Made by a program: the position numbers and the translations under genes. Below, piece by piece: positions 313 through 57,729 of a DNA stretch of 64,000 bases; the first letter of the stretch is position 1; the number at the start of each line of letters is the position of its first letter. The stretch covers positions 14,384,001 to 14,448,000 of the forward strand of contig NC_135808.1 in NCBI RefSeq assembly GCF_964213995.1. The letters are read 5' to 3'. Under the pieces are notes generated by a model. It worked only from the letters and a program-made list of their open reading frames with translations. It did no database searches and was not told the DNA's origin. Source of the DNA: Mustelus asterias (Eukaryota).

Positions 313-348
313 AATCAGGATCATTAAAAGAAACAGTAAAAGATATGG
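313..348 (+). CDS. Microexon A1 (36 nt), phase 1: (E)[11 protein letters not shown]
   Basis: tacatttcag|AATCAG...ATATGG|gtgagt. Confidence 0.8.
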
Positions 349-3300
349 GTGAGTAAACTGGAGACTGAATAATAAAGATGTATAAAATGGGACAGGAAAT
401 AGAGGAAAAACAGCAAGAATGGAATATATACATTCATAGGAAATGATCTCCGAATATAACAACTTCGGTTTGTACTTGGTCTGCTGAAGAAGTTCTAAAA
501 GCTACAGGCATAGATCAACAAATATCTATTTAAGGAAGATTGCCATGTGTTTTGTTGTACTCAGAGACAATAGATTTCTAATGACATGGTAATACTGCAA
601 TACACAAAGTGAATTGCATATTTTTACGAAAGTACATAAAACTTCTGCGAATTAGAAAAGTAACATTACAATCACTCTGTGCTCTATTCAAAAAATGAAT
701 TCAACAGAGGTTCTATGAGACTCACATGCAGACTGGAGATGGAGGATTCACCGTCGCGACTTCTTTTTACCGTTTTAGGAACAGCAAGGCGGCTGGAAGA
801 AATGTACAAAGGTATGCACATGTGAATTTATATTCCACAGAAATATGTCACTTATTAATAATGTAATATTATTTTAAAACATTTAACGGAAATGGGCATT
901 TGTGCGTTTCGTGATATCCAACTTCTGTGGGGTAATAATGAATGATCATTTTTAATATCTTTGCTTCCAATATATGATTGGTGGAGTGACATTTTTTTTT
1001 GTTAATTTCGTTTGTGTGAATGAAACGCTAATTTACCTTCTTTAAAGAATCTCCAAGCATTTCGATACTAGGCATGCGCAGGGGCAATTTGACTTATTAT
1101 TGTTAGGTATCAACATACCTAACTGTTGAAAGCTTTTGTTTCTTGCGCTGTCTCGTATCTCTGAACAAATGGAACTGTTCCTTGACATATCTATCATGTT
1201 CCATCTACAGTATTGTTGTGTGTTGTGCTTACTTTTGAGCCCAGTCTACGTTTTCAGTGTGACTTAATATTCCCACATCGATATCTTCTTGTAACTTCAG
1301 ACTTCCTTCACTCTTAACAAATCTCCCAATCTTCGTGTAGAAAATCAATGAAGCTTTATACAGGCGGCATATTGCACCACATCTCAGGAAGTACTTAATG
1401 AAAACCATACGTTTGCTGCAATCATCCGGAATAGGTTGACATCTGCTCTTCTCTCTCTCTCTCTATCAATCAATCTCCCTGCCTATCTACCNNNNNNNNN
1501 NNNNNNNNNNNNNNNNNNNNNNNNNNNNNNNNNNNNNNNNNNNNNNNNNNNNNNNNNNNNNNNNNNNNNNNNNNNNNNNNNNNNNNNNNNNNNNNNNNNN
1601 NNNNNNNNNNNNNNNNNNNNNNNNNNNNNNNNNNNNNNNNNNNNNNNNNNNNNNNNNNNNNNNNNNNNNNNNNNNNNNNNNNNNNNNNNNNNNNNNNNNN
1701 NNNNNNNNNNNNNNNNNNNNNNNNNNNNNNNNNNNNNNNNNNNNNNNNNNNNNNNNNNNNNNNNNNNNNNNNNNNNNNNNNNNNNNNNNNNNNNNNNNNN
1801 NNNNNNNNNNNNNNNNNNNNNNNNNNNNNNNNNNNNNNNNNNNNNNNNNNNNNNNNNNNNNNNNNNNNNNNNNNNNNNNNNNNNNNNNNNNNNNNNNNNN
1901 NNTATCGCACTGCCTGCTGTCTATCTGTCTGACTATCGAGCTGATTATCTGGCTGCCTATACTTCTGTCTGTTTCTCTCGAGACCGAGCTCTATGCAACT
2001 GTTGCTGCTTCCAGCTGATGACCTTCTCACCACAAAAAAAAACAACTTCCAAACAAGAATGATAAAAAGCAAGAATGAAGTTTAGCAAATGGAAAACAGA
2101 ACGGAGAAAAATGATCCACGGGATACATTAGTTACGTGAAACAGGAAGAGATTGACAGTCAGTTGACGAGCTGTCATTCGACTGACTGAAAATTGCAGCT
2201 GCAACAAACCGTTACTGGGCTATTCTGTGATGGACAGGCAACAATTCAAAATCGAAGTGGACGCCAGAAAAGCAATTTCGTTGATATGAAAATGTGTTTA
2301 CCTAGAGAAACCATGACATATTGCCTTTTTTCCTAAAATCTAACAGCAAAACATACACTGGGGAAGCGTTGCATTGTGGGGCCATATTGATGCACATGTG
2401 CACCAAATGATCAGGCTGCAGACATTCCCCTGCACATAATTAAAGGTAACTATCCAGCCCTCATGAGGAGAATCTGCTGGAGAGAATTATGCTAAACTGG
2501 GACAAGGTGAATCCCGTGTCAGTGCCAGAAGCAGGTTTACTGAAGACTTGAAAGAAACATGCCATTTTTAATGAGAACTGGGATGCATAAAAATAATATC
2601 AGTCAAGATAGAAATTAAGGAAGAACGTCATACAAAACACATAAAGGATCGGTGAGTGTCGTAGGCCATCCGGCTGAAGGTCGTGGCTGCTCAATGTATG
2701 GGTCATGAGCCACGTTAATGGCACAGTGACGAAGAAAAATGTTTCAGTAAGCATTTGTGACAAATTTAAAGTCACTTACAATCGGAACTGTTTGTAGAGC
2801 AGCACCCTCTGCCATTAATTGGTGATTTGTTTGCTGGCTTGGCTGGGCGCCAGCATTTCAGCAAAGCTGACCTTAGTCAAGCTTCACTCAAGGGAAATAT
2901 GGATCCAGATTTACAATAATATTTGACCATCTTGACGCACGAAGTATGACTCGGATATGAAAGACTTCTATTTTGTAATATGCCTGGAGTTGTGTGGTTC
3001 CACCGTGTCATGCATAGACCAAATTCGAAGGAGACTAGAAGGCGTCCAGTTCTGCTTAGACAATATCTTGGTTACTGGAAAGAATGAAGAAGAACATCAT
3101 CAAAGTTTAGAGATTAGAAGATGGCATAATGTCAGTATTCCGTTGGACAGCTGGGGCAGATTATAGATGCAGAGGAACTGCAAAATTCGCCTTCAATCTT
3201 GAAAGCCATAACTGAGGCACCTGTACCTCAAAACGTGAATCAACTGCGTTCTTTCTTGGACTGACTAAGCTTTCTAGAAAGTTTGTCTCTGATCTTGCAA

Positions 3301-6300
3301 CTAACCTCAAGCCTTTACGCAATATATTGCGTGAAAACAAGAAATGAAAATGGCTGAATCAGTGCGATTAAGTTTTTAATACAAGCCAATAAGCTATCAT
3401 TAAAGTCAGAAATACTGGCACAGATGGATCCGAAGTTACCCTTGCAACTGGCTTGCAACGCATCACCTTATGGGATGGGGGCGGTGGTTTTTCACATAAT
3501 GACCAATGGTGAAGTGAAGGCTTTGCATTCAAATCCTTGAACAATGCAGGAAGAGCTATGCAGCGATTAAGAAGGATGATCTGAGCATCATTTTCTGGAT
3601 CAAACTTTTTTTATATGGGGAGGAAAATGTTCTGTATTCCTGTTTGTTCGAAGTTGGAACAATGTCACTTTAAGAGTTAATTCACGTGTCGTGTCGAGAC
3701 GTCATCGGTCATTTGCTCGGGCAAACACCTTTCGAATAAAGCTTGCATTTCAAACAAAGAACAAAGAACAGTACAGCACAGGAAACAGGCCCTTCGGCCC
3801 GCCAAGCCGGCGCCGCTCCTTGGTCCAACCAGACCAATCGTTTGTATCCCTCCATTCCCAGGCTGCTCATGTGACTATCCAGGTAAGTCCTAAACGATGT
3901 CAGCGTGCCTGCCTCCACCACCCTACTTGGCAGCGCATTCCAGGCCCCCACCACCCTCTGGGTAAAAAACGTCCCTCTGATATCTGAGTTATACTTTGCC
4001 CCGCTCACCTTGAGCCCGTGACCACTCGTGATCGCCACCTCCGACCTGGGAAAAAGCTTCCCACTGTTCACCCTATCTATCCCGTTCATAATCTTGTACA
4101 CCTCTATTAGATCTCCCCTCATTCTCCGTCTTTCCAGGGAGAACAACCCCAGTTTACCCAATCTCTCCTCATAGCTAAGGCCCTCCATACCAGGCAACAT
4201 CCTGGTAATCCTTCTCTGCACTCTCTCTAACGCCTCCACGTCCTTGTGGTAGTGCGGCGACCAGAACTGGACGCAGTACTCCAAATGTGGCCTAACCAGC
4301 GTTCTATACAGCTGCATCATCAGACTCCAGCTTTTATACTCTATACCCCGTCCTATAAAGGCAAGCATACCATATGCCTTCTTCACAACCTTCTCCACCT
4401 GTGTTGCCACCTTCAAGGATTTGTGGACTTGCACACCTAGGTCCCTCTGTGTTTCTATACTCCTGATGACTCTGCCATTTATTGTATAACTCCTCCCTAC
4501 ATTATTTCTTCCAAAATGCCTTACTTCACATTTATCCGGATTAAACTCCATCTGCCACCTCTCCGCCCAATTTTCCAGCCTATCTATATCCTGCTGTATT
4601 GCCCGACAATGCTATTCGCGATCCGCAAGTCCAGCCATCTTCGTGTCATCCGCAAACTTGCTGATTACACCAGTTACACCTTCTTCCAAATCATTTATAT
4701 ATATCACAAATAGCAGAGGTCCCAGTACAGAGCCCTGCGGAACACCACTGGTCACAGACCTCCAGCCGGAAAAAGACCCTTCGACTGCTACCCTCTGTCT
4801 CCTGTGGCGAAGCCAGTTCTCCACCCATCTAGCCTCTTCTCCTTGTATCCCATGAGCCTTAACCTTCTTAACCAACTTGCCATGTGGGACTTTGTCAAAT
4901 GCCTTACTGAAATCCATATAGACGACATCCACGGCCCTTCCTTCATCAACCGTTTTTGTCACTTCCTCAAAAAACTCCACCAAATTTGTAAGGCACGACC
5001 TCCCTCTTACAAAACCATGCTGTCTGTCACTAATGAGATTGTTCCGTTCTAAATGGACATACATCCTGTCTCTAAGAATCCTCTCCAACAACTTCCCTAC
5101 CATGGACGTCAAGCTCACCGACCTATAATTTCCTGGGTTATCCCTGCTACCCTTCTTAAACAATGGGACCACATTCGCTATCCTCCAACCCCCAGGGATC
5201 TCACCCGTGTCCAAAGAAGCGACAAAGATTTCCGTCAGAGGCCCAGCAATTTCATCTCTCGTCTCCCTGAGCAGTCGAGGATAGATGCCATCAGGCCCTG
5301 GGGCTTTGTCAGTTTTAATGTTCCCTAAAAAAACTAACAATTCCTCTCTTGTAATGGAGATTTTCGCTAACGGGTCAACACCTCCCTCCGAGACACTCCC
5401 GGTTAACACGCCCCTCTCCTTCGTGAATACCGATGCAAAGTATTCATTTAGGATCTCCCCTATTCCCTTGGGTTCTAAGCATAATTCCCCTCCTTTGTCC
5501 CTGAGAGGTCCGATTTTCTCCCTGACAACTCTTTTGTTCCTAACGTATGAATAGAATGCCTTAGGATTCTCCTTAATCCTGCCTGCCATGAACATCTCGT
5601 GACCTCTTTTTGCCCTTCTAACTCCCCGTTTGAGTTCTTTCCTACTCTCTCTGTATTCCTCCAGAGCTCCATCTGTTTTCTGTTGCCTGGACTTAATGTA
5701 CGCCTCCCTTTTCATTTTAATCAGATCCTCAATTTCCCTGGTTATCCACGGCTCTCGAATCCTACCTTTCCTATCTTTCATTTTTACAGGTACATGCCTA
5801 TCCTGCAGCCTTATCAATAGTTCCTTAAAAGACTCCCACATGCCAGACGCGGACTTACCCTCGAACATCCTCTCCCAATCAACATCCACTAATTCCTGCC
5901 TAATCCGGCTATAGTTAGCCTTCCCCCAATTTAGCACCCTGCCCGTAGGACAGCATTCATCGTTGTCCATTACTATCCTAAAGTTAATAGAGTTGTGGTC
6001 ACTATTTGCCACATGTTCCCCAACCGAAACTTTGACGACCTGACCGGGCTCATTTCCCAGAACTAGGTCCAGTATAGCCCCCTCTCTAGTCGGGCTATCT
6101 ACATACTGTTCCAAAGAACCTTCCAGTACGCATTTTACAAATTCCTCCCCGTCCGGACCCCCAGCTCTAAGCACTTTCCAGTCTGTGCCAGGGAAATTAA
6201 AGTCCCCCACTACAACAACCCTATTTTTTCTGCACCTATCCAGAATCTCCTGACATATCCTTTCCTCCACTTCCCGTGGGCTGTTGGGTGGTCTGTAGTA

Positions 6301-9300
6301 CACCCCCAGCATAGTGACTGCACCCTTCCTGTTTCTGAGTTCCACCCACAGCGACTCAGTACATGACCCCTCTAAGTTGTCTACCCTCTGCACCGCGGTA
6401 ATATGCTCCTTAACTAATATCGCTACTCCCCCACCTTTTTTAGCCCCTCCTCTGTCTCGCCTAAAACGCTTATACCCCGGAATATTCAGCTGCCAGTCCT
6501 GTCCTTTTAACCAAGTTTCCGTCACCGCAACCACATCCAAATTCCGCATAAGCATTAAGGCCCTAAGTTCGTCTGTTTTACCCGTTACACTCCTCGCATT
6601 GAAGCAGATGCACTCCAGACCTCCAGGCCCACTCAGATCATCCTCCTCCAGAGTGCTCCTCTTCTTAGCTAGCCTTGCCCTGGCCCGCAGCTCAACCCCA
6701 GCCTCAGTATTTACTGACCTACTGTTTTGTTCCCTACCCCCCTGCCACACTAGTTTAAATCCTGCCGAAATACTCTAGCAAAACTCCCAGCCAGGATATT
6801 TGCTCCCTTCCAGTTGAGGTGTAACCCATCCTTTCTGTACAGTTGCCATCCTGACTTGAAGATTTCCCAGTTATCTATGAATTTAAAACCCTCCCTCTTG
6901 CACCAGTCCTTTAGCCACGCGTTCAACTGTAGAATCTCCCTGTTCCGAGCCTCACTTGCACTAGACACCGGGAGCAGTCCAGAGATTGCTACCCTGGAGG
7001 CCTTACTTTTTAGCCGAGCACCCAACTCCCTGAATTTCTGTCGCATGACCCCCCTGCTCTTCCTACCTACATCATTTTCACCAATGTGTATAATCACATC
7101 CGTTTGACTACCTTCCTTTTTAAATATTTCCTTGTCATTTTGTGCTCTGCAAGCATATCCTTTAAACAGACCACAGCTTCCCATCCATGAAATAAGTAAA
7201 ACAGACGTAACGTCATTCGAAACCTAGTTACTAGCTGGTACAAACTATGAATATGAATCATCATCCCTAGACGTGCTCTGTGCTGTTACAATTATAAAGT
7301 CCCTTATTAACGGAACTGAACTGTGTCTAATTTGTTTGACTAGTTTAGCGACGAATTTAATAAAGACTTCATTATTTCGTGACAATTGTTTTAAAACCAT
7401 TACTGTTTTGACAATTAGTTACTTAACTAATATCTCCCGACTTCAATACTTGCTTTTCGAAAATACAATTATCATGCTGACTCCCTTCCCCCTCACATCA
7501 GTTTCTTGCACTCTCTCTCTGCCTTTTCTTCTGGAACGCCTCTGTCACTATTTCTAATGAGGTCGATGGTGTTCCCACCGCTCTCACGCTGTCTCTCTCC
7601 CACTGTCTTTTGGTCTCGACTGCGAATGCGGCATTGCCGTTCAGATTCGTGAAGTACAAGTCGTTGCCAGAAGGAACATTGTACATGTCGCATAAAGGAA
7701 GAAAATTTCGATTGTTTCGGTTATTTTCCTATCAGTCATATCGGATTTTCTATCCTTGGGCGATTTATCATTTCAGGAATCGGATCAATAAAAGATGCAG
7801 TGAAAGATATGGGTGAATAAACGGAAAAATGAATAATATATTTGATTGAATTGGGACAGCAATTAGAGGAGAAACAGCATAAATTGAATATCTGCCTTCA
7901 TGGGCAGTTCAATTAATCAGTGGTCTCCGAATATAAGAACTACCGTTTGTACTTGGTCTACGTAACATGTTCCAAAGCCCCAGGTCAACGAATATCCATT
8001 TAAGTAAGATTGCCATCTACTTTATTGTATTCTCGATACAATCGATTTCGAGGGAAATGGTATGACATCAATATAGAAAGCGAAGGTACAAAACCATTCG
8101 GCAAACTAGAAGGGCAGCTTTACACTCAGAACTCCTGTGCCCTATTCAAAATATGAATTCTATGACACTCCCATGCAGACTGGAAATAAAAGATTCACGG
8201 TCGCGACTTTTCTGTCACCTTTTTAGAAACAGTAAGGAAGCTGGGCGGAAAATACAGCGGTAGGCACATTTTAATTTATGTTTCACAGAATGATGCCAAT
8301 TATTAATGTTGTCATATTATTTTGGAACATTTAACGGACATTGGATATTGGTCCGTTTCATGATACCAACCTTGTGTGGGGTGATAATGAATGATCGTTC
8401 TTCATATGATTGCTTTCTGTATATAATTGGAAGAGTAACATTATTTTTAATTAATTTCTTTTGTGTGAATGAAGTGCTTAATTTGCTTTACCGAAGGAAC
8501 TACAACAACTTTGATATTGGACATGCGTGGCAACAAAAATGTTCTGATGGTACAAGAGTTATGAACACAAATTTAAGGTTTTGTAGAGGACTATTATGAA
8601 ATGTGAAGAGGAAGATTTCTATGCATAGAGTGGGTGTGACCTGAAATATGATGCGTTCTGGGTGGTGGAAGCAGAGAAGATAAATATTTCCAATGGGAAT
8701 TGGATGTGCAGTTGAGAGGGAAGCATTTGTATGGCCTTGGGAAACAAAGTGTGATTGGCACATACTAGATTCCTCTACATAGAGCTGGCATGGACAAGGT
8801 GGGCCGATAGTTCTTCTTCTGTGACGTTATGAGCTAGAGTCCAATAGAAAAAAATGTTTTATTTTTACTGATTCTTTCACAAGATGTGTCGCTGGCTGGG
8901 CCAGAATTCATTGCCCATCCATTACTGCCATTGAGAAGGCAATGCCAAGCAATCTTTGTGAACGTCTGCAGTGTCTCCCAGAAGATGGTATCGCATAGAA
9001 CATACCAATTATTGTATTGTGCCTCCATTTTAGTAGCTGTAACGAAATGGATGAGTTCTTTGACACCTTTATGATATTCCATCTCCGGTAGTGTCATATT
9101 ATCCAAAGTATGTTGTGCCTTCTTTTGAGCCCACTCTGCGTTTTCACTATGACATGATATTTCCACATGGATTGCCGTGCCCATTGCGCACCAAATTTAT
9201 TTGCCACATAACTCTATGTTCAGGTGCATGAACAATAAATTAAAATTGTGTTATTTCTTCGCCTGAACTTGAAACAATCTGGGATCTTGCCATCCCTTGC

Positions 9301-12300
9301 TGCAGTGCTGAACCCTGTTCTTCCTGCCTACTGTAACATTCCATTTCCCGCTCCCCTGCCAATTTAGTTTTCATTTCCTGAACAGCAGTAACAACCCACC
9401 CTGAAAAGGGACTATACTCAGATCTGTTGAACGGAAACTACTCCAGCCTGGAATTGTTCCAGTTCCCTTTGTGTCTACATCAAGATCCCTCTCTTCTGAT
9501 CAGCCAAACCGTCATTCTTTTTATACACCTATGATTATTGTCTTTGCATCTTTTTAGCCAATTTCCTGCCGAGATACTTAAAATCTTCCTGCAGTATCTC
9601 ATTTTCCTTTCGATGTCATTTCGATGGCTGGCGTAACTGTTCTGCACGCAGGAGGAACAAACAGATTTGCACAGCATGGTTAGGGAGGTGATCATAATTC
9701 ACGTTAACAGCATGCTGGATCAGAGCGAATGGGCGACTGAGAGGTAGGTGCACATCTCCAAGCAGTTTGTGCAGGGGCCTCGAGAGTCCACCCTGCTCGC
9801 CAATCAGTTTTCCACTTCTGATATTCGTGAGGGCGATTTTTCCCCAGTAGCGAGCAGCCAAACTCAATTCTGTGCCACCATGGTGTCTTTGCTGCACAGA
9901 CGTGGAGGCAGAACAACAGATATAGAACATACCATATCCAAGGCCGATTTTGCACAAACGTGGCATCAAGAAACTTTCGCAAAACAGGAGTCAAGGGAAC
10001 TAGAGGCAGAATTGTCTGCTGGTTTGAGTCATACTTGCCACAAAATAAGATGTTTGTGCTTGTTCGAAGTCTATCATCTCAGCTCCAGGGCATCACTACA
10101 GATGTTTCTTAGGATTGTGCCCTTAGCCAAACGACCTTCAGCTCTTCCATCAATGACGTTCCTTCCATCATAAGGTCGGAGGTTGAGGTGTTTCTCTGAT
10201 GATTGCTCTGTTCTTCAGTCCCATTCTCAACTTCTCAGACACTGAAGCAGTCCATGTCCAAACGCAGCAGGACAATTTCCAGACATGCACTGACAAGTGG
10301 CAAGTAACGTCCATGTCTTTCAAATACCATACAATGACCATTTCCAGCAGGAGAGTATCCAAACATTGCCACTTGACGCTCAATGACTTTACCACCGCTG
10401 AGTCTCATACTATCAATGCGGGTGGGTCAGCATTAACCAGAAACTTAACTGTCAGAGCCATATAATGCTGTGGCTATAAGAGGCAGTTAGCAGGCCAGGA
10501 TCTCTGTGGCGAATAACACCGAAACCTGCCCACCATCGATAAAGCGCAAGTTAGGACTGTGATGGAGTACTCGCCACTTGCTTGGATGAGTGGAGCTCGA
10601 ACAACAGTCAGCTTGATACCATCCAGGAAAAGGCAGCCCACTTGATTGGTATCCCGCCCACAAATATTCACTCTCTTCACCACTGGCGATCAGTGGCAAC
10701 CTTGTGTACTAACTGCAACAGTCACTGTAGGAGCACATGCAGGTTTCTTGGGTCCTTTTTTTTCGAAATAACACTTCATATTCAAACGAGCTACCCACCT
10801 AATATCACCCTACCGCACAACTTGCTTTTCAATAATGCAGTCATGTCGGCTCTGTTCCCTCTGACATCTGTTTCTCACTCCCCCCGCCCCCTCTCTCTGC
10901 ATTATCTGCTGCAACGCCTCTCGTAATGTCTCCAATGAGGCCGGTGATGTTCGCATCGGTCGCCCTCTGCCTCTCTCCCTCACTCTCTTCTGTTCCCGAT
11001 AGCGAATGCCTGTATTTCCGCTCAGGCATCTGAAGTGTAAGTTGTTGCTACAATGAACATTTTGTATGTTGCCTAAAGGAAGAAGAAAATCGTCTGTTTT
11101 AGTTTTTTCTACCATTCATATGGAATTTTCCACCCTAAGACGTTTTACATTTCAGAATTAGGATCATTAAAAGAAACAGTAAAAGATATGGGTGAGTAAA
11201 CTGGAGACTGAATAATAACGATGTACAAAATGGAACAGGATAAAGAGGAAAAACAGCAAGAATGGAATATGTACTTTCACAGGAAATGATCTCCAAATAT
11301 AACAACTTGGGTTTGTACTTGGTCTGCTGAAGAAGTTCTAAAAGCTTCAGGCACAGGTCAACAAATATTTATTGAAGTCAGATTGCCATGTGTTTTATTG
11401 TACGTACTCTCGAGACAATAGATTTCTAACAAAATGGTAATACTACAATACAGAAAGTGAATTGCATAATTTTATGAAAGCACATAAAACTTCTGCCAAT
11501 TAGAAGAGTAGCATTATAATCACTATTGTCCTCTATTCGAAATATGAATTCGACAGAGACCATAAGACCATAAGACCATAAGACATAGGAGCGGAAGTAA
11601 GGCCATTCGGCCCATCGAGTCCACTCCACCATTCAATCATGGTTGATTTCAACTCCATTTACCCGCTCTCTCCCCATAGCCCTTAATTCCTCGAGAAATC
11701 AAGAATTTATCAATTTCTGTCTTGAAGACGCTCAACGTCTCGGCCTCCACAGCCCTCTGTGGCAATGAATTCCACAGACCCACCACTCTCTGGCTGAAGA
11801 AATTTCTCCTCATCTCTGTTCTAAAGTGACTCCCTTTTATTCTAAGGCTGTGCCCCCGCGTCCTAGTCTCCCCTGTTAATGGAAACAACTTCCCTACGTC
11901 GATCCTATCTAAGCCGTTCATTATCTTGTAAGTTTCTATCAGATCTCCCCTCAACCTCCTAAACTCCAATGAATATAATCCCACGATCCTCAGACGTTCA
12001 TCGTATGTCAGGCCTACCATTCCTGGGATCATCCGTGTGAATCTCCGCTGGACCCGCTCCAGTGCCAGTATGTCCTTCCTGAGGTGTGGGGCCCAAAATT
12101 GCTCACAGTACTCCAAATGGGGCCTAACCAGTGCTTTATAAAGCCTCAGAAGTACATCCCTGCTTTTGTATTCCAAGCCTCTTGAGATAAATGACAACAT
12201 TACATTTGCTTTCTTAATTACGGACTCAACCTGCAAGTTTACCTTTAGAGAATCCTGGACTAGGACTCCCAAGTCCCTTTGCACTTTAGCATTATGAATT

Positions 12301-21300: not shown

Positions 21301-24300
21301 TTTTTAAAATAACAAAATCATATTCACAGCTAGTTACTAACCTAATATCAGCCTACTTCACAACTTGCTTTTCAAAAATATTTTTCGACTCTGTTCCCTC
21401 TGACATCTGTTTCTTGTTCTCTCTCTTTCGCTGCGTTTCCTTCTGCAGCGCCTCTGCTAATGTCTCCAATGACGTCGGTGATGTTGTAAGAAGTTTAACA
21501 CCAGGTTAAAGTCCAACAGGTTTATTTGGTAGCAAAAGCCACACAAGCTTTCGAGGCTCTAAGCCCCTTCTTCAGGTGAGTGGGAATTCTGTTCACAAAC
21601 AGAACTTATAAAGACACAGACGCAATTTACATGAATAATGGTTGGAATGCGAATACTTACAACTAATCCAGTCTTTAAGAAACAAAACAATGGGAGTGGA
21701 GAGAGCATCAAGACAGGCTAAAAAGATGTGTATTGTCTCCAGACAAGACAGCCAGTGAAACTCTGCAGGTCCACGCAACTGTGGGAGTTACAAATAGTGT
21801 GACATGAACCCAATATCCCGGTTGAGGCCGTCCTTGTGTGTGCGGAACTTGGCTATCAGTTTCTGCTCAGCGACTCTGCGCTGTCGTGTGTCGCGAAGGC
21901 CGCCTTGGAGAACGCTTACCCGAATATCAGAGGCCGAATGCCCGTGACCGCTGAAGTGCTCCCCAACAGGAAGAGAACAGTCTTGCCTGGTGATTGTCGA
22001 GCGGTGTTCATTCATCCATTGTCGCAACGTCTGCATAATTTCCCCAATGTACCATGCCTCGGGACATCCTTTCTTGCAGCGTATCAGGTAGACAACGTTG
22101 GCCGAGTTGCAAGAGTATGTACCGTGTACCTGGTGGATGGTGTTCTCACGTGAGATGATGGCATCTGTGTCGATGATCCGGCACGTCTTGCAGAGGTTGC
22201 TGTGGCAGGGTTGTGTGGTGTCTTGGTCACTGTTCTCCTGAAGGCTGGGTAGTTTGCTGCGGACAATGGTCTGTTTGAGGTTGTGCGGTTGTTTGAAGGC
22301 AAGAAGTGGGGGTGTGGGGATGGCCTTGGCGAGATGTTCGTCTTCATCAATGACATGTTGAAGGCTCCGGAGGAGATGCCGTAGCTTCTCCGCTCCGGGG
22401 AAGTACTGGACAACGAAGGGTACTCTGTCCACTGTGTCCCGTGTTTGTCTTCTGAGGAGGTCGGTGCGGTTTTTCGCTGTGGCGCGTTGGAACTGTTGAT
22501 CAATGAGTCTAGCGCCATATCCTGTTCTTATGAGGGCATCTTTCAGCGTCTGGAGGTGTCTGTTGCGATCCTCCTCATCCGAGTAGATCCTGTGTATTCG
22601 GAGGGCTTGTCCGTAGGGGATGGCTTCTTTAACGTGTTTAGGGTGGAAGCTGGAGAAGTGGAGCATCGTGAGGTTATCCGTGGGCTTGAGTACCCTTCGT
22701 TGTCCAGTACTTCCCCGGAGCGGAGAAGCTACGGCATCTCCTCCGGAGCCTTCAACATGTCATTGATGAAGACGAACATCTCGCCAAGGCCATCCCCACA
22801 CCGCCACTTCTTGCCTTCAAACAACCGCACAACCTCAAACAGACCATTGTCCGCAGCAAACTACCCAGCCTTCAGGAGAACAGTGACCAAGACACCACAC
22901 AACCCTGCCACAGCAACCTCTGCAAGACGTGCCGGATCATCGACACAGATGCCATCATCTCACGTGAGAACACCATCCACCAGGTACACGGTACATACTC
23001 TTGCAACTCGGCCAACGTTGTCTACCTGATACGCTGCAAGAAAGGATGTCCCGAGGCATGGTACATTGGGGAAATTATGCAGACGTTGCGACAATGGATG
23101 AATGAACACCGCTCGACAATCACCAGGCAAGACTGTTCTCTTCCTGTTGGGGAGCACTTCAGCGGTCACGGGCATTCGGCCTCTGATATTCGGGTAAGCG
23201 TTCTCCAAGGCGGCCTTCGCGACACACGACAGCGCAGAGTCGCTGAGCAGAAACTGATAGCCAAGTTCCGCACACACAAGGACGGCCTCAACCGGGATAT
23301 TGGGTTCATGTCACACTATTTGTAACTCCCACAGTTGCGTGGACCTGCAGAGTTTCACTGGCTGTCTTGTCTGGAGACAATACACATCTTTTTAGCCTGT
23401 CTTGATGCTCTCTCCACTCCCATTGTTTTGTTTCTTAAAGACTGGATTAGTTGTAAGTATTCGCATTCCAACCATTATTCATGTAAATTGCGTCTGTGTC
23501 TTTATAAGTTCTGTTTGTGAACAGAATTCCCACTCACCTGAAGAAGGGGCTTAGAGCCTCGAAAGCTTGTGTGGCTTTTGCTACCAAATAAACCTGTTGG
23601 ACTTTAACCTGGTGTTGTTAAACTTCTTACTGTGTTTACCCCAGTCCAACGCCGGCATCTCCACATCATGTCGGTGATGTTCCCATAGCTCCCACTCTGC
23701 GTCGCTCTCACTCTCTTCTGTTCTCGAACGCGAATGCGTGTATTTCCGATCAGGTATCTGAAGTGTCAGTTGTTGCTACAATGAACATTATCCATGTTTC
23801 TTAAAGGAAGAAAACAAAGCGATTATTTCAGTTTTTCCTGCCAGTCATATCGAATTTCCCACCCTGAGACGTTTTATCATTTCAGAATTAGGATAATTTA
23901 AAAAAAACAGTAAAATATATGGGTGAGCAAAAGGAAAACTGAATAATAAATTTGAATAAAATGGGACAGGAAATAGTGGAAAACTGCAGGAATGAAATAT
24001 GTACTGTTGTAGGTAAAAATAGCTCTGAGTCTATTCGTCGGTCAAAATACAGTGGTTTATTTGCACAATTGTGGGAGACCATCCGATGCCCAACATGGCC
24101 TCAGACTTCACAGCAAATACAGGTTAAAAACATATATTTATACCCCCCCTGTCACGTTCAGTTTCCCAGGCCGCACAGGTTCCCAGGCTGTGGCTTATCT
24201 TCCATCGTGTGAACGTTGCTGCCTTGGCGGTTTCTTCACGGTTGCCTCAAGGCCGTGACTGTTATTCTCTGAACACAGGTGGGATATCTTACAAATGTAC

Positions 24301-27300
24301 AAGGTTACAGTCTCGTACAAACAAGTTAACTGGCATACAACAATTTATATATGTTCGTAGGTACTTGTATAATGTATATCGGTGCAGGTTATGCTGAATA
24401 TATATATGAATGTATCATTATACAATCACAGAAGGCCTACATGTAGGCTTCTACTGTTACACAGCGGTACATGTTAAAGAATACAAAATGGTGGGGTTCG
24501 CCACATTCCGGAACAGATTAGCCGGTCACAACATATTCTTCTATATCACAGCTGCTACCCTTATTTGTTCTAGGATACATGAGCATGAAAATACCCTAAC
24601 GTAAACATGAGTTCTACAGTGTTTCTCACACAATCTCTAAATAGCACAGAATTCACTTCGACACTTTGAGTATTAGAATTCATTAACCCATTCCCGTCTT
24701 CAGTACCTTCAGAGGAAATTGTCCCCAAATATAACAACTTCCATTTATACTTGGTCTGCTTAAGAAGTTCCAAAAGCTCCAGATACAGGTCAACAAATAC
24801 CTATTTAAGTAAGATTTCCATTTTCTTTATTGTACTCTCGAGACAATAGATTTCTAACGAAATGGTAATATAGCAATACAGAAAGTGAATTGCATATTTT
24901 TACGAAACACATAAACATTCTGCCAATTAGAAGAGCTGCATTATAATCACTGCTGTGCTCTATTCAAAACATGATTTCAATTAGGTTTTTTGACACTCAC
25001 ATGCAGACTGGAGATAGAGGATTCACCGTCGCGACTTATTTTTACCGTTTTAGGAACAGCAAGGCAGCTGGAAGAAAAGTCCAAAGGTACGCAGAAGTGA
25101 ATTTATATTCCACAGAATGATATCACTTATTAACATTGTAATATTATTTCAAAATATTTAACAGAAATGGATATTTGTCCTTTTCCTGATACCCACCTTC
25201 TGTGGGGCAATAATGAATTATCATTTTTGTATGTTTGCTTCCAATATACGATCGGTGGAGTGACCTTTTTTGGTTAATCTCTTAATTAATATCTTCCTGT
25301 AACTTCAGATATTCTACACTATTAACTGTTCCGCCAATCTTGGTGTATAAAATCAGTGAACCTTGNNNNNNNNNNNNNNNNNNNNNNNNNNNNNNNNNNN
25401 NNNNNNNNNNNNNNNNNNNNNNNNNNNNNNNNNNNNNNNNNNNNNNNNNNNNNNNNNNNNNNNNNNNNNNNNNNNNNNNNNNNNNNNNNNNNNTTTCTTT
25501 CTATCTGTCCACCTGTCTATTTATCTGACTGCCTTTCTATCTGTCTATCTGTCTGACTATCCAGCTGTATATTCAACTGTCTATTTCTCTGTTGAAATTT
25601 CGCTCAATGCAACTGTTGCTGCTTCTAGCTGATGACCTTGTCACCAGAAAGGAAAAACAACTTCCAAACATGAATGATAAAATGCAAGTACATTGTTCAG
25701 CAAATGGAAAACCGAATTGAGAAAAATGATCCGTGGCTTACATTAATTACGTGAAACAGGATGAGATTGGTGACGAGCTGTCACTGGACATCGTGAAAAT
25801 TGCAGGTGCAACACACCGTTACTGGTTATGGACAGACAACTAGTTAAAATCGAAGTGGGCACCAGAACAGCAATTTCGTTGGTAGGAGAAAGTGTTCTCC
25901 AAGAGAAACCATGACATATGCCATTAAAAGCCTAAAATATAATAGGAAAACCTACACTGGGGAAGCAGTTGCATTGAGGGGCCATATTGATGTAAATGTG
26001 CACCAAATGATCGGACTGCACACTTTCCCCTGCACATAATTAAAGTTAACTATCCAGCCCTATTGAGGAGAACATGCTAGAGAGAATCATGCTAAACTGG
26101 GACAAAGTGAATGTCCTGTCAGTATCTGAAGCAGGTCTATGGAAGATTTGAAAGAAACATGCTATTGTTTTTAATGGGAACTGCGAAGCATCAGTCAGAC
26201 ATCAGTCAAGATAACGATTAAGGAAGAACGTCATGCAAGATGCGTAAAGGGTAGGTTAATGCCATTGGACAACAGATCTAAGATCAAGGCTGCTCAATGC
26301 ATGGGTCGTGTGTTTGAGCCATGATAATGATACCCGTGATGAAGAAAAATGTTTCAGTCAGCATATGAGGCAACTTTGAAGTTACCAAAAATTCGGTACG
26401 GTTTGTAGAGCAGTACCCTCTGCCATTAATTGGTGATTTGTTTGCTGACTTGGCTGGACGCCAGCATTTCAGCAAAACTGAACTTAGCCAAGCTGAACTC
26501 CAGAGAAATATGAATCCAGATTCACAATAATGTTGATCGTCGTGACTGTCGTGACTATTCGGATATGAAAGACTTCCATTTTGCATAATGTCTGTAATTG
26601 AGTGGTTCCAACGTGCCATCCATGGGTCAAACTCGAAGCAGACGAGAAGGCGCCAAGTTCTCCTTAGGCGATATCTAAGTTTCATGGCCATTGTTTTTTC
26701 ACTCGTCTTTTTTTAAAATAACAAATTTCATATTCAGTATTAATTAATATCACCCTACTTCACAACTTGCTTTTCAAAAATACAAAGTCATTTCGACTCT
26801 CTTCCCCCTGACACCTGTTTCTTGCTCACTCTGCGTTTTCTTCTGCAACGCATCTGCTAATGTCGCCAATGAGGTCGGTGATGTTCCCATCGCTCCCTCT
26901 CTGTCTCTGTCTGTCTCTCACTCTATCGCTCTTTTGTGTTCCCGACAGCGAATGCGTGTATTTCCGATCAGGTATCTGAAGTGCAAGTTGTTGCTACAGT
27001 GAACCCAACGTATGTTGCTTAAAGGAAGAAAAAATCGATTGTTTCAGATTTTCCTACCAGTCATATCGAAGGTCCCACCCTGAGACGTTTTATCATTTCA
27101 GAATTCGGATCATTAAAAGAAGCAGTGAAAGATATGGGTGAGTAAACAAAAAACTGAACAATGAATTTGAATAAATGGGACAGGGAATAGAGGAAAATCA
27201 GCAAGAATGGAATATGTACATTCATAGGGAATGGTCTCCAAATATAACAACTTCCGTTTGTACTTGGTCTGCTTAAGAAATTCCAAAAGCTCCAGACATA

Positions 27301-30300
27301 GGTCAACAAGTATCTATTTGAGTAAGATTGCCATTTGCTTTATTGTACTCTCGAGACAATAGATTTCGAAGGAAAGGGTAATACAGCAATGTGGAAAGTG
27401 AATTCCATATTTTTGCTAAAGCACATAAGCCTTCTGCCAATTAGAAGAGCAGCATTACAATCACAACGTCTGTGCTCTGTTCAAAATATGAATTCAACAG
27501 AAGTTCAATGACACTCACATGCAGGCTGGAGATAGAGGATTCACGGTTGCGACCTATCTTTATGGTTTTAGGAACAGCAAGGCAGCTCGAAGAAAAGTAC
27601 AAAGGTACGCACATGCGAATTTATATTCCACAGAATTATGTCACTTATTAATATTGTAATATTACTTTAAACCATTTAAAGGAAATGGACATTTTTCCGT
27701 TTTGTGATACCCACCTTCTGTGGAATAATAATGAATTATAATTTTTAGCTTGCTATCCTTTAGTTTGCTTCCTATATATGATCGGTGGAGTGACTTTTTA
27801 GTTAAACGTTCAATTAATATCGTCTGGTAACTTCTGAACTTCTTCACTCGTAACCAACATCTTTCAATCTTGGTGCATAAAATCAATAAAGCTTTATTCA
27901 GGCGAAATGTTGCACCACATCACAGGAAGAACTCAGTTAAAACCATATCGTTGTTGCTGTCATCCGGAGNNNNNNNNNNNNNNNNNNNNNNNNNNNNNNN
28001 NNNNNNNNNNNNNNNNNNNNNNNNNNNNNNNNNNNNNNNNNNNNNNNNNNNNNNNNNNNNNNNNNNNNNNNNNNNNNNNNNNNNNNNNNNNNNNNNNNNN
28101 NNNNNNNNNNNNNNNNNNNNNNNNNNNNNNNNNNNNNNNNNNNNNNNNNNNNNNNNNNNNNNNNNNNNNNNNNNNNNNNNNNNNNNNNNNNNNNNNNNNN
28201 NNNNNNNNNNNNNNNNNNNNNNNNNNNNNNNNNNNNNNNNNNNNNNNNNNNNNNNNNNNNNNNNNNNNNNNNNNNNNNNNNNNNNNNNNNNNNNNNNNNN
28301 NNNNNNNNNNNNNNNNNNNNNNNNNNNNNNNNNNNNNNNNNNNNNNNNNNNNNNNNNNNNNNNNNNNNNNNNNNNNNNNNNNNNNNNNNNNNNNNNNNNN
28401 NNNNNNNNNNNNNNNNNNNNNNNNNNNNNNNNNNNNNNNNNNNNNNNNNNNNATGATGTTCTCACCAGAAAGTAAAAAAAACAACTTCCTAACAAGAATG
28501 ATAAAAAGCAAAAACCAAGTTTAGCAAATGGAAAGCCGAATAGAGAAAAATGATCCACGGGATACATTAATTACGTGAAACAGGATGAGATTGACAGTCA
28601 GGTGACGCGCTGTCACTGGACATACTGAACATTGCAGGTGAAACAAACCGTTATTGGGCTGTTCCGTGATGGACAGGCAACAAGTTAAAATCGATGTGGA
28701 CACCAAAACAGTAAATCGTTGGTATGATAAAGTGTTTACCAAGAGAAACCATGACATATTCCATTAAAACCCTAAAATATAATAGAAAACTTACACTGGG
28801 GAAGCGACTGCATTGTGGGGCCGTATTGCAAGTGCACCAAATGATCAGACTGCAGACTTTCCCCTGCACATAATTAAAGGTAACTATCCAGCCCTAATGA
28901 GGAGGACCTGCTGAAGAGAATCATGCTAAGTTGGGACAAGGTGAATGTCCTGTCAGTGTCTGAAGCAGGTCGACGGAAGATTTGAAAGAATCATGCCATT
29001 GTTTATAATGGGAACTGGAAAGCGTGAGACTGATCTCAGTCAAGGTAAATATTCAGGAAGAACGTGATGCAATATGCTTAAAGGGTAGGTGAGTGCCATC
29101 GGGCATCAGGCCAAATGTTGCTGCTGAATGCATAGGTCATGCGTTTGAGCCACGTTAATGGTACCCTGATGAAGAACAATGTCTCAGGAAGCATATGTGG
29201 GAACTTTTAAGCCACTTAGAATTCGGTACTGTTTGTGGAGCAGCGCCCCCTGCCTTTAATTGGTGATTTGTTTGCTGTCTTGGTTGGATGCCAGCATTTC
29301 AGCAAAGCTGACCTTAGTCAAGCTTAACTCCAGAGAAATATGGAGCCAGATTCACAATAATATTTGACAATCGTGACGCACAAAAGAATATTCACATATG
29401 AAAGACTTCCATTTTGCATTATGTCTGTAGTTGAGTGGTTCCAACATGCCATGCATAGGTCAAATTCAAAGCAGACTAGAAGGCGTCAAGTTCTGCTTAG
29501 ACAATATCTAACTTTCATGGGCATTGCTTTTACATTGGTCTTTTTTGGAATAACAAAATCATAATCACAATTACCTAATATCCCCCTACTTCACAACTTG
29601 GTTTTCAAAAATACAAAGTCATATCGACTCTCTGTCCCTGACATCTGTTTCTTGCTCTCTCTCTCTCTCTGCGTTTTCTTCTGGAACGCATCTGCTCATG
29701 TCTCCAATGAGGTCGGTGATGTTCCCATCGCTCCCTCGCTATCTCCCTGCCTCACTCTGCTGTGTTCTTTACAGGGAATGCGTGTATTTCCGATCAGGTA
29801 CATGAAGTGTAAGTTGTTGCAAGAATGAACATTATGCACGTTACCTAAAGGAAGAAGAAATTATTGTTTCAGTTAGTCATTTCGAATTTCCCACCCTGGG
29901 ACGTTTTGTTATTTCAGAATTAGGATCATTAAAAGAAGCAGTGAAAGAAATGGGTGAGTAAACGGAAAACTGAATAATCAATTTGAATAAAATGGGACAG
30001 GAAATAGAGGAAAAACAGCAAGAATGGAATATGTGCCATCATCGGAAATGGTCTCCGAATATAACAACTTCCATTTGTACTTGGTCTGATTAATGAGTTC
30101 CGAACGCTCCAGGCACAGGTCAGCGAATACCTATTAAGTAAGATTGCCATTTGCTTTATTGTACTCTCAAGGCAATAGATTTCTCAGGAAATGGTAATAC
30201 AGCAATAGGGAAAGTGAATTCCACATTTTTACGAAAGCACATAAACCTTCTGCCAATCAGAAGAGCAGCATTACGATCACAACTCCTGTGCTCTATTCAA

Positions 30301-33300
30301 AATATGAATTCAACAGATGTTCTATGAAACATGTAGAATGGAGATAGAGGATTCACGGTCGCGACTCATTTAACCGTTTTAGGAACAGCAAGGCACCTGG
30401 AAGAAAAGTACAAAGGTACGCCCATCTGAATTTATATTCCACAGAATGATGTCACGTATTAATTTTGTAATATTATTTTGACAATTTTAACGGAATTCGA
30501 AATCTGTCCGTTTTGTGATACCCACTTTCAGTGGGGTAATAATGAATAATCATTTTTAATATGCTTGCTTTCAATGTATGATCGGTGGAGTGACTATTTG
30601 TTGCTTAATTTCGTTTGTGTGAATGAAACGCTTATTTAACTTCGTTGAAAAAAGCTACAAGAATTTCGATAGTAGACATGTGTGGGCAATAAAAATCACA
30701 CTGATGGTAGAAGAGCTCGGAACACAACTATTTGATTTGGTTTGATTTATTATTGTCACATGTATCAATATACAGTAAAAGTTATTGTTTCTTGCGCTAT
30801 ACTGATAAAGCATACCGTTCATAGCGAAAGAAAGGAGAGATTGCAGAATGTAGTATTACAATCATAGGTAGGATGTAGAGAAAGATCAAATTAAAACAAG
30901 GTACGTCCATTCTGAAGTCTGATGACAGCAGGGAAAAAATGTTCTCCAGTCGGTTGGGACGTGTCCTCAGACTTTTGTACCTTTTTCCTGACGGAAGAAA
31001 GTGGAAGAGAGTTTGTCCAGGGTGCGTGGAGTCCTTGCTTATGCTGGCCGCTTTTCCGAGGCAGCAGGAAGTGCAGACAAAGTGAATGGATGGGAGGCTG
31101 GTTTGCGTGATGTACTGGGCTTCTTTCACGATCCTTTGTAGCTTTTTGGCAGTCTTGGGCTGAGCAGGAGCCATACCAAGGTGTGATATCACCAGAGACA
31201 ATGCTTTCTATGGCGCATCTGTAAAAGTCGGCGAGATTCTTAGAGGACATGCCACACTTCCGTAGGCCCCTGAGAAACTAGAGGCATTGGTGGGCTTTCT
31301 TAACTATTTCCTCAGCTTGTAGGAACCAGGACAGGTTGTTGGTGATCTGGCACCTAGAAACCTGAAGCTCTTGACCATTTCTGCTTCGCCCCCGTTGATG
31401 TAGACTGGCGCATGTCCCTTCTTCGTTTTGTTGATTTCGTTTTTCCTCCTTCGTTTTGTTAACATTGAGTGAGAATTTATTGTCGTCGCACCAGTTCACC
31501 AGATTCTCTTTCCTGTCCGCTGTCTCATCATTGTTTGAGTTTTGCTGAGGACTACTGTGAAATGTGAAGAAGAAAATTTCTGTGCAGAGTGGCAGTGAAC
31601 TGCAACATGGTTCCTGCAAAGGTGGCGGAAGTAGAGAAGACCAATACTTTCAATCGGATGGGCAGTTCTGAAGGAAACATTTGCATGGCTATTGGGATGC
31701 AATGCGTGGTTGGCAGACTGAATTCCTCAACCGCTTGCCAGTATGGGCAAGATGGCCTGAAAGGCCTTCTTCTGTAATGTTATGAGTTAGAGTCCAATGC
31801 AATGAAATGTTTTATTGTTGCTGATTATTTCACAGGACGTGGGCGTCGCTGGCTAGGCCATAGTTCATTGCCTATTCACAACTGCCACTGAGAAGGCAAC
31901 GCTGAGCCACCTCCTTGAGCGCCTGCAGTATCTCCCAGAAGTTGGTATCTCATAGAACACACCCAGGACCGTAATACTGCCTCAATTTTTGTAGCTCTAA
32001 ACAAATGGTTCCGTTCCTTGACACTAACATTCCATCTTCAGTATTGTAATTATCCACAATATGTTATGCCTTCTTTTCAGCCAGGACTACGTTTTCACCA
32101 TGATATAATATCCCCGCATCTCTATCTTCTTGTAATTTCTGACCTTCACTATTAACCAATCTACCAATCTTGGTGTATAATATCAATGAAACTTCATACA
32201 GGCGAAATGTTGCACCACATCTCAGGAAGAATTCAATTAAAACCATAATGTGGCAATCATCCGGAAAAAAGTTGGTGTCTGGCAAGTGAACGGATATTCA
32301 AGAGGCAGATAATTAGCAGGACTGGCCGCTCGAGAACTGGCCGCTGCCCACAGGTGCAACAGAGAACAAAGAACAAAGAAAATTACAGCACAGGACCAGG
32401 CCCTTCGGCCCTCCAAGCCTGCACCGACCATGCTGCCCGACTTAACTAAAGCCCCCTACCCTTCCGGGGACCATATCCCTCCATCCCTATCTCATTCATG
32501 TACTTGTTCAAGACGCCCCTTAAAAGTCACTACCGCACCCGCTTCCACTACTTCCCCTGGTAGCGAGTTTCAGGCACTCACCACCCTCGGTGTAAAAAAC
32601 TTGCCTCGTACATCTCTTTTAAACCTTACCCCTCGCATCGTAAATCTATGCCCCCTAGTAATGCACACTTCCGTCCTGGGAAACAGCTTCTGACTATCCA
32701 CTCTGTCCATGCCCCTCATAGTCATGTAGACTTCTATCAGGTCGCCCCTCAATCTCGTCGTTCCAGTGAGAACAAACCAAGTTTCTCCAACCTCTCCTCA
32801 TAGCTAATGCCCTCCATATCAGGCAACATCCTGGTAAATCTTTTCTGTACCCTCTCCAAAGCCTCCACATCCTTTTGATAGTGTGGCGACCAGAATTGAA
32901 CACTATATTCCAAAAGTGCTCTAACTAAAGTTCTATAGAGTTGTAACATGTCTTGCCAATTTTTAAACTCAATGCCCTGGCCGATAAAGGGAAGCATGCC
33001 GTATGCCTTCTTGACTACCTTCTCCACCTGCACTGCCACTTTCAGTCATCTGTGTACCTGTACACCCAGATCCCTTTGCCTATCAATAGTCCTAAGGGTT
33101 CTGCCATTGACTGTATATTTCCTATCTGTATTAGACCTTCCAAAATGCATTACCTCACATTTGTCCGTACTAAACTCCATCTGCCATCTCTCTGCCCAAG
33201 TCTCCAACTGATCTATATCCTGCTGTATCCCCTGATGGTCCTCATCGCTGTCCGCAATTCCACCAACCTTTGTGTCGTCTGCAAACATACTAATCAATCC

Positions 33301-55519: not shown

Positions 55520-55689
55520 TCCTGCAGCTTATATACAGCTGTGGCTTGTTAGGAGAGTGCAGGTGCATTGAGTGTGGGCAGTCAAGGGCACGTTGCAACA
55601 AATAATTGTGAGAGATTTTGAAGGCTGCATTCAGTTGAGTGCCATTCACCCCTCAGTGTGCTGACTGGCTGCCATTCAATAGGCTGCTG

Positions 55690-57720: not shown

Positions 57721-57729
57721 TACAATGTA

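Follow-up and report, generated by a model that had tools for sequence, protein, structure and literature searches.

The A and B microexon copies in the analysed window of 64,000 nucleotides of Mustelus asterias DNA are best explained as symmetric phase-1 microexons of a gene in the shark MHC region (gene 1), predicted to encode a coiled-coil rod followed by a B30.2 domain. Tandem duplication of the A/B pair would have lengthened the rod, which is likely a soluble, self-pairing intracellular scaffold that holds and spaces B30.2 binding heads. We are highly confident that gene 1 is a real coding gene of the rod-plus-B30.2 architecture, and the account as a whole, including A/B lengthening and the spacing of heads, is probable. 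With it, the butyrophilin, BG and TRIM group gains a design in which a head-less rod is joined to B30.2; the gene lies in the MHC of sharks, which serves as the model for the ancestral vertebrate MHC.

Microexon array and terminal B30.2 exon of gene 1

The seven A and six B copies reported by the first-pass annotation were all located in the window. In twelve of them the exact length claimed (36 nt for A, 33 nt for B) is kept and the phase-1 frame is open, and AG/GT ends are present in all 13.

313..348, plus strand: A microexon, 36 nt, phase 1-1
779..811, plus strand: B microexon, 33 nt, phase 1-1
7777..7812, plus strand: A microexon, 36 nt
8227..8259, plus strand: B microexon, 33 nt, divergent type; 5/10 residues identical to the catshark segment
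11156..11191, plus strand: A microexon, 36 nt
12584..12616, plus strand: B microexon, 33 nt; preceding intron enlarged to 1.39 kb
18769..18804, plus strand: A microexon, 36 nt, without B partner
23886..23922, plus strand: broken A copy of 37 nt with an in-frame stop; AG/GT ends present
25054..25086, plus strand: B microexon, 33 nt
27102..27137, plus strand: A microexon, 36 nt
27572..27604, plus strand: B microexon, 33 nt
29918..29953, plus strand: A microexon, 36 nt
30383..30415, plus strand: B microexon, 33 nt

Three additional A copies (-14462, -9932 and -2478) and two additional B copies (-9462 and -2026) are located upstream of the window, giving a total of 10 A and 8 B copies, 17 of which are open. 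The A copies are spaced 2.8–7.6 kb apart, and the units starting at -14462 and 18769 lack a B copy. Gene 1 contains at least 34 exons between -60 kb and +72.6 kb: at least 33 phase-1 microexons and a terminal B30.2 (PRY/SPRY) exon. The first called exon is at window-equivalent position -60289, and the entire window (1..64000) is inside the gene, on the plus strand. The exons downstream of the A/B block align with the protein of the catshark orthologue.

33498..33521, plus strand: 24-nt microexon; catshark isoform X1 residues 229–236, 3/8 identical
34176..34202, plus strand: 27-nt microexon; catshark 237–245, 5/9
35403..35429, plus strand: 27-nt microexon; catshark 246–254, 7/9
38872..38919, plus strand: 48-nt microexon; catshark 255–270, 13/16
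42456..42482, plus strand: 27-nt microexon; catshark 271–277 by position only, 1/7
61049..61075, plus strand: 27-nt penultimate exon, preceding the B30.2 exon; catshark 278–286, 5/9
61141..61184, plus strand: 44-nt candidate for an alternative exon, containing an early stop; strong splice scores
72038–72561 (window-equivalent; contig 14,456,038–14,456,561), plus strand: B30.2 exon, phase-1 acceptor at 72038

If used, the candidate 44-nt exon would drop the B30.2 domain. The terminal exon is fully open, was identified with a phmmer E-value of 1.6e-20 and a Pfam SPRY score above the cut-off, and its best match among solved structures is the B30.2 domain of BTN3A1 (E 2e-25). It was recovered only by local phmmer and was missed by motif regular expressions; neither B30.2 exon of the locus is among the matches listed in genome-wide Pfam SPRY and PRY searches (150 of 298 and 150 of 266). 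No Pfam domain scored above the cut-off in 150 of 356 splice-acceptor open reading frames across the locus region. Exon-only profile searches of proteins gave no match among 7999 scored (alignment A2) or 728 scored (alignment A5). The single match from a search of representative proteins was discarded, as it aligned to an intron-derived part. Two degenerate exon patterns matched inside the gene locus only (one and two matches), with none in controls.

The computed product of 34 exons, which skips the A copy at 23886, is 521 residues long, 196 of them from the A/B block, and is free of internal stops. The broken copy has to be skipped for the frame to stay open, also in the product proposed by the first-pass annotation. 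Because its splice sites are kept, its inclusion would truncate the protein. Contigs of one DNA sample (two runs) list no difference or gap at this copy, a weak comparison in which differences were only partly counted.

The reading frame of the microexons is strongly biased. An untrained generic splice scan from -62 kb to +1,464 kb identified 52 candidates of 27 nt on the plus strand versus 6 on the minus strand, and 44 versus 3 candidates of 36 nt. All 52 and all 44 plus-strand candidates are stop-free in the phase-1 frame, whereas in the other two frames only 26 and 29 of the 52, and 6 and 19 of the 44, are. This bias, the exon array, the phase-matched B30.2 exon and the catshark orthology support the claim of a hidden coding gene, for which exact splice junctions are now predicted; the exons are presumably spliced in M. 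asterias.

The 18 A/B copies were compared with flanking intron, the refutation test named beforehand. Every one of the 18 copies retains both splice dinucleotides; of the intronic AG/GT pairs, only 2 of 32 in the A flanks and 6 of 30 in the B flanks are intact in all copies. Divergence is lower in A exons than in intron windows (0.155 versus 0.250; 6% of 79 windows are equally low) and barely so in B exons (0.169 versus 0.207; 30% of 91 windows). Length retention, which is equalled by 37% (A) and 20% (B) of intron windows, is not significant by itself. The pN/pS ratios among copies of 0.88 (A) and 1.43 (B) contain no signal of purifying selection at the amino-acid level.

Catshark orthologue and the predicted coiled-coil rod

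The orthologue of gene 1 in catshark is represented by RefSeq XP_038672306-310, automatic models named 'E3 ubiquitin-protein ligase TRIM39-like'. Therefore, the claim that the gene is unannotated is only partly correct: a model of the orthologue exists, under a wrong name, since the RING and B-box are absent. Pfam identified no RING, B-box or Ig domain in isoforms X1 and X2, which also lack transmembrane segments. The catshark protein was the sole match among 289 candidates, is the sister of gene 1 in the tree at 98/98, and is about 70–71% identical over the B30.2 domain. The peptides match exon by exon and collinearly, and the non-SPRY part scores 308, compared with 120±21 for exon-order shuffles (maximum 203 of 500). 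Some segments within catshark residues 130–155 and 174–208 have no called counterpart in gene 1. Whereas M. asterias has 10 A and 8 B copies, the catshark protein contains a single A-like and a single B segment. This difference bears out the proposed growth by tandem duplication of A and B, which is caught in progress, from one unit to eight to ten. Exon skipping, also proposed, is supported by isoforms X1 and X2, which differ by one 9-residue segment; the isoforms further differ by 18 N-terminal residues. No paper on the orthologue was found.

The claim of a coiled-coil type of helical product is supported by the scan. The 27- and 36-nt exons encode 9 and 12 residues, together three heptads, and the scanned microexons contain 0–0.8% proline. 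In the 36-nt exons, large hydrophobic residues occupy positions 2 (84%), 5 (80%) and 9 (59%). The heptad power is 12.3 in the genomic exon order and 8.2±0.7 in exon-order shuffles. The frame would survive free skipping from any exon to any other, but the heptad register, which depends on the order of the exons, would not. The 23-residue A/B unit is not a clean heptad repeat, as it has a period of 3.29 and a glycine at the A/B junction. A 23-residue repeat also occurs in the neck of DC-SIGN-type lectins, but this resemblance is unsupported; gene 1 ends in B30.2 and not in a C-terminal C-type lectin domain. An A-exon profile matched no lectin neck in the PDB, a weak test with 11 positions only. 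A single-sequence model of the catshark protein has a mean pLDDT of 48, exceeding 80 only in approximately residues 110–170 of one long helix, and is too weak for a fold search. A homodimer prediction for residues 28–451 scored 0.11 and allows no verdict; the rod likely dimerizes.

Relation to known proteins and possible function

Enterophilins are soluble proteins with a long leucine zipper and B30.2. They share the soluble heptad rod plus B30.2 predicted for gene 1, but are mammalian gut proteins. The TRIM39, TRIM21 and TRIM5 proteins also combine a coiled coil with B30.2, whereas gene 1 has no RING or B-box and builds its coil from dozens of microexons. The proposed likeness to butyrophilin tails is supported by the 27-nt exon followed by a phase-1 B30.2 exon. 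Butyrophilin and BG genes share with gene 1 short split-codon (phase-1) exons for heptads and MHC linkage, and BTN3A1 shares the B30.2 domain in its own C-terminal exon after the heptads. Unlike them, gene 1 lacks an Ig ectodomain, signal peptide and transmembrane segment, its exons and those of a second array behind it measure 27/36 nt rather than 21 nt, and gene 1 has at least 33 microexons and the second array hundreds, compared with few in butyrophilins and 13–36 in BG. According to PMC4046983 and PMC5938342, chicken BG tail exons expand, contract and splice alternatively, and BG genes are described there without B30.2. Schistosoma MEGs resemble gene 1 in their many short exons, mostly multiples of three, and in splice variation, but are secreted, have at most 189 residues and 10–20 exons, whereas gene 1 is a vertebrate gene with B30.2 and no signal peptide (bioRxiv 2023.06.21.545858). 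Aphid bicycle genes, like MEGs, have many short exons missed by automatic annotation, but encode salivary effectors (PMC9168663). The likeness of both to gene 1 is an analogy only.

By analogy with TRIM and butyrophilin proteins, the B30.2 head may recognize a ligand of cellular origin or from a pathogen. Copy number and exon skipping would set the length of the rod, which may tune reach or avidity; avidity through head spacing is a working model from TRIM-B30.2 proteins (PMC5667893). We give an immune-recognition role of gene 1 slightly less than an even chance. The same gene could instead encode a non-immune scaffold whose rod binds cytoskeletal or trafficking partners, as reported for the soluble chicken BG tail and enterophilin-1. 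A soluble BG tail displaces tropomyosin (PMC5938342), enterophilin-1 is reported to bind SNX1 and to reduce EGFR at the cell surface (PMC13749957), and gene 1 has no RING for ubiquitin signalling. Nevertheless, the position in the MHC on a contig with many B30.2 genes in large clusters, together with fast copy turnover, fits immune genes circumstantially, and we regard a non-immune scaffold as rather unlikely. The butyrophilin- or BG-type membrane protein implied by the word 'stalk' in the first-pass annotation is very improbable, despite the 27-nt penultimate exon before B30.2, BTN3 as the best solved matches, and the MHC linkage. No signal-peptide, Ig or transmembrane exon was found in the upstream stretches scanned: Ig, RING and B-box domains are absent from 150 of 169 non-repeat plus-strand open reading frames (at least 45 residues) between RBM4 and -26 kb, and no signal-type first exon (hydrophobic ATG-to-donor) occurs from -92 to -38 kb. 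The catshark models have no such segments and begin in a polar 9-residue repeat, polar from residue 1. An Ig-transmembrane gene lies at -166 kb but was discarded as a head for gene 1, since a stop closes it after the transmembrane segment. A genome-wide V-set search in which 150 of 2601 candidates were scored was uninformative.

Two further alternatives accept the gene and question its use of the A/B copies or its integrity. Most copies might be skipped or used singly, so that the expansion is neutral and the mature rod not much longer than in catshark. The pN/pS near 1, the broken A copy, the two units without B and the modest A acceptor scores (-0.1 to 3.0) are consistent with this. However, the splice dinucleotides are intact throughout, 17 of 18 copies are open, the hydrophobic positions are retained across seven complete units, and similar tandem units arose separately at three sites downstream, which makes mostly skipped copies unlikely. 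Alternatively, inclusion of the broken exon at 23886, with its stop, extra base and intact AG/GT, may have knocked out this gene copy and the remainder may be drifting, in line with the lack of purifying signal among copies. The open B30.2 exon, its similarity to catshark and the uninterrupted 34-exon product render such decay improbable.

Second microexon array in the MHC region

A second array of 27/36-nt heptad microexons begins at about +128 kb in window coordinates, behind gene 1 and on the same strand, and extends for about 2.8 Mb to a second B30.2 exon at contig position 17,297,773. In the first 1.34 Mb 187 exons were called; with 1.34 Mb covered contiguously and 242 kb sampled, the total extrapolates to about 390. 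The 2.8-Mb run of mini-exons beside gene 1 likely hides a far larger relative. More tentatively, the part of the elasmobranch MHC that separates RBM4B from nurim, a 'gene desert', may hide a single gene of ~2.8 Mb, with ~390 symmetric microexons encoding a coiled coil of ~4,000 residues plus B30.2. If so, its product would stand at the extreme of a so far undescribed family of immune proteins, head-less rods with B30.2, in which exon copy number determines length; the gene would come close to titin in its number of exons and span more DNA than dystrophin.

Downstream neighbours are phostensin, valyl-tRNA synthetase and DDR1, which establish the MHC linkage, and exons that we take to be RPS5-like and ABCF1-like. 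Five related B30.2 exons are located on another contig (C20). The same neighbourhood is present in other elasmobranchs, where published gene lists leave the syntenic interval beside nurim empty over 0.96 Mb in sawfish and 1.80 Mb in white shark (PMC10751288 supplement). In catshark it contains seven unnamed models, LOC119976524 to LOC119975530, over 3.94 Mb (same supplement), tied to the second array by position and strand only. The array in M. asterias offers a reason for the empty or fragmented gene lists: here the interval is filled with genes for microexon-built rods, which annotation fails to assemble. In the main text of PMC10751288 there is no occurrence of the words 'coiled', 'butyrophilin', 'RBM4' or 'PPP1R18', and no description of the gene or array was found in a literature search outside subscription journals and most supplements. 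The further tandem units with intact exons, which arose separately, are located at +235–262 kb, +531–599 kb and +889–940 kb.

Integrity of the A and B copies

Scanning for matches to the first A and B copies, phase-1 microexons of 36 and 33 nt, respectively, recovered the seven A and six B exons in the window, 14,384,001-14,448,000 of contig C8 (NC_135808.1), at the positions claimed by the first-pass annotation. Twelve of these 13 copies are 36 or 33 nt long and open in phase 1, and all 13 have AG/GT ends; the broken copy A-23886 has 37 nt and contains a stop codon, with its AG/GT ends kept. Three additional A and two additional B copies upstream of the window bring the totals to ten and eight. 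The splice-site dinucleotides are intact in all 18 copies, whereas 2 of 32 intronic AG/GT pairs in the A flanks and 6 of 30 in the B flanks survive in all copies. Compared with the introns that flank them in these units, the splice sites are thus conserved, a comparison that the first-pass annotation had itself set as a refutation test; retention of exon length by itself has no significance relative to the introns of the duplicated units. The divergence of A exons (0.155) is lower than that of introns (0.250), and that of B exons is slightly lower (0.169 versus 0.207), with pN/pS among copies of 0.88 for A and 1.43 for B. The frame and splice sites of the A/B copies are conserved, and their amino acids are drifting. 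The original observation is confirmed, and its interpretation is supported in part.

The window also contains inverted 2.5-kb LINE-like copies at 3753-6260 and 49784-52291, which are 97.5% identical, one of them within an A/B unit. Positions 49300-53100 hold what we take to be remnants of a Harbinger/PIF-like transposase, interrupted by a LINE-like insert and lying in a GC-rich stretch.

Extent and orthologue of gene 1

An open B30.2 (PRY/SPRY) exon at +72,038 (signed positions are window coordinates extended along the contig) was identified among 51,591 ORFs searched locally with phmmer. The exon has a phase-1 acceptor, is located 11 kb downstream of a 27-nt exon at 61049, and matches Pfam SPRY above the cut-off, with BTN3A1 as its best solved match. 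The microexon gene that it terminates, gene 1, spans -60.3 to +72.6 kb, with a minimum of 34 exons and a predicted product of about 521 residues, 196 of them from A/B. An additional candidate exon begins 65 nt after the penultimate one:

Window 61141-61184: candidate 44-nt exon that has strong splice sites and soon reaches a stop codon

The use of this exon would, judging from the sequence, yield an isoform without B30.2.

The B30.2 exon of gene 1 retrieved one protein from 289 candidates, the 451-residue catshark XP_038672308, named 'TRIM39-like', which is 70% identical and in which Pfam recognizes PRY and SPRY and nothing else. Its N-terminal part matches gene 1 exon by exon (for example, 13/16, 8/12, 8/9, and 7/9 identical residues), with an alignment score of 308 compared with 120 ± 21 for exon-order shuffles (maximum 203, n = 500), and the B30.2 domains of the two proteins are sisters with a support of 98/98. 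The catshark protein contains one A-like and one B segment, versus ten A and eight B in Mustelus asterias. Therefore, the A/B array is a lineage-specific expansion, in agreement with the proposed growth by tandem duplication of the pair.

The stalk suggested previously was not borne out as part of a membrane protein, since the upstream check revealed no signal-type exon from -92 to -38 kb and no Ig, RING, or B-box in 150 of the 169 ORFs upstream of gene 1. A small CD2/SLAM-like gene (L016:3550-6390) is composed of a signal exon, one Ig C2-type exon, and a transmembrane exon with a stop six residues on; no V domain was seen in it. It was ruled out as the head of gene 1 by the stop right after the transmembrane segment. 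Between this gene and gene 1, from -120 kb to -92 kb on the minus strand, is presumably an RBM4-like gene, positioned head-to-head with gene 1.

The second microexon array and its surroundings

Microexons continue on the same strand downstream of gene 1:

Contig C8 (NC_135808.1), 14,512,600-17,298,300, same strand as gene 1: second microexon array, about 2.8 Mb, with its own B30.2 end

A contiguous scan covered 1.66 Mb (-200 kb to +1,464 kb) of the 3.68-Gb genome. An untrained scan from -62 kb to +1,464 kb, using only generic splice weights (approximate values) and with high-copy-repeat candidates removed, found 52 plus-strand versus 6 minus-strand candidates of 27 nt, and 44 versus 3 of 36 nt. 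The phase-1 frame is stop-free in all 96 plus-strand candidates, compared with 26/52 and 29/52 (27 nt) and 6/44 and 19/44 (36 nt) for the other two frames; in the 36-nt class, positions 2, 5, and 9 are mostly occupied by large hydrophobic residues. A locus-trained model gave 27 plus-strand matches versus 0 on the minus strand, and 12 versus 0, in two held-out 200-kb blocks. At a score of at least 8 it called 217 exons versus 10 on the minus strand, and none upstream of -62 kb. The heptad power of the 194 best exons in genomic order is 12.3, versus 8.2 ± 0.7 with the exon order shuffled, which indicates that pairs of 9- and 12-residue exons hold register. The A/B unit has a period of 3.29, unlike the heptad of the wider array.

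The second array has 187 called exons from +128.6 to +1,461 kb, about ten of which are expected to be false, with exon-poor gaps near +452-495, +756-825, and +1,229-1,303 kb. Sparse sampling found plus-strand matches, and no minus-strand ones, in 16 of the 20 ten-kb stretches reaching to +2,354 kb; four of six seven-kb stretches to +2,870 kb also had plus-strand matches, and the 12 stretches sampled beyond +2,966 kb contained none scoring at least 8. A second B30.2 exon, related to the first and also in phase 1 on the same strand, is located at +2,913.8 kb. No further B30.2 ORF was found in the contiguously scanned part, and none between the two exons among the best 150 of 258 candidates of a genome-wide search. 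Extrapolated to this end at the same density, the array would comprise about 390 exons coding for 3,900 residues. It is conceivable, if somewhat doubtful, that the second array is a single giant gene.

Exon units were tandemly duplicated independently at +235-262, +531-599, and +889-940 kb. An exon pair, the first ending in A and the second starting with TG, rebuilds a Met codon at window 34176-35429 and at +496/508, +623/634, and +1,063/1,072 kb; this recurrence points to ancient duplications of large modules between gene 1 and the second array. An intron at +394 to +405 kb contains an endogenous retrovirus-like element with long gag-, pol-, and env-like ORFs, the insertion of which is recent, as its LTRs are 99.6% identical.

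Among the matches listed, the closest relatives of the gene 1 domain include the second B30.2 exon and five on another contig, C20, at 9.42, 12.40, 12.75, 13.57, and 14.30 Mb, which possibly mark a paralogous microexon cluster. More than 100 clustered PRY/SPRY exons occupy 1.1-12.1 Mb and 31.1-32.2 Mb of contig C8.

Downstream samples match phostensin, valyl-tRNA synthetase, and DDR1, together with exons that we take to be RPS5 and ABCF1. The neighbours of the locus are MHC framework genes. Phostensin precedes RPS5 here, contrary to published orders. According to the supplement to Verissimo et al. 2023 (PMC10751288), no gene is annotated in sawfish between nurim (end 7,515,761) and 8,477,394, adjoined by RBM4B-like and SLAM-like genes, or in white shark at 92,374,884-94,175,162. 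The same source gives seven unnamed plus-strand catshark models, each between 177 kb and 1.18 Mb long, at 22.216-26.155 Mb, the last ending 10 kb before nurim, and no comparable gap beside nurim in reedfish. The array may correspond to this nurim-side interval, to which it is linked by position and strand only.

Proposed working of the product

Gene 1 is predicted to encode a helical rod that carries a B30.2 head but neither a ligase nor a membrane anchor. By analogy with TRIM5 and butyrophilin tails, the rod would self-pair and present two or more heads; in TRIM5, the way in which the tethered SPRY domains are spaced accounts for part of the avidity (PMC5667893). Since the exons are symmetric, duplication and skipping would change the rod length with the frame unbroken. 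The proposed skippability agrees with stops arising at just 0.4% of any-to-any exon junctions and with the catshark isoforms, which differ in one internal 9-residue segment and 18 N-terminal residues. Isoform models of this type generally rest on RNA-seq.

The main rival to this reading is a cytoskeletal or trafficking role, as in enterophilin or the soluble BG tail (PMC5938342 for the latter). We also leave room for a neutral A/B expansion with heavy skipping, given the broken copy A-23886 and pN/pS near 1.

In working, a rod with a B30.2 head would resemble a TRIM lacking its RING or the cytoplasmic half of a butyrophilin; gene 1 nevertheless falls outside both families. The likeness to BG and butyrophilin tails noted previously extends to the BTN3A1 match and to exon design, for which chicken BG tails are the closest: their exons number 13-36 and measure 21 or 24 nt (PMC4046983), versus 27/36 nt here. 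The suggestion that the gene may be unannotated holds only in part, since the orthologue is present in databases as a misnamed automatic catshark model. Neither the gene nor the array was described in any paper that our search turned up. The new findings are that both arrays end in B30.2 exons, that gene 1 has an orthologue with a contrasting copy number, that the second array extends over 2.8 Mb, and that the locus is placed in the MHC. To judge from the misnamed orthologue and from chordate clusters of SPRY proteins in the ESM Atlas (1,277-1,802 residues, unrelated automatic names, scores of 0.81-0.91, leads only), public annotation probably contains a wider family that has gone unrecognised.
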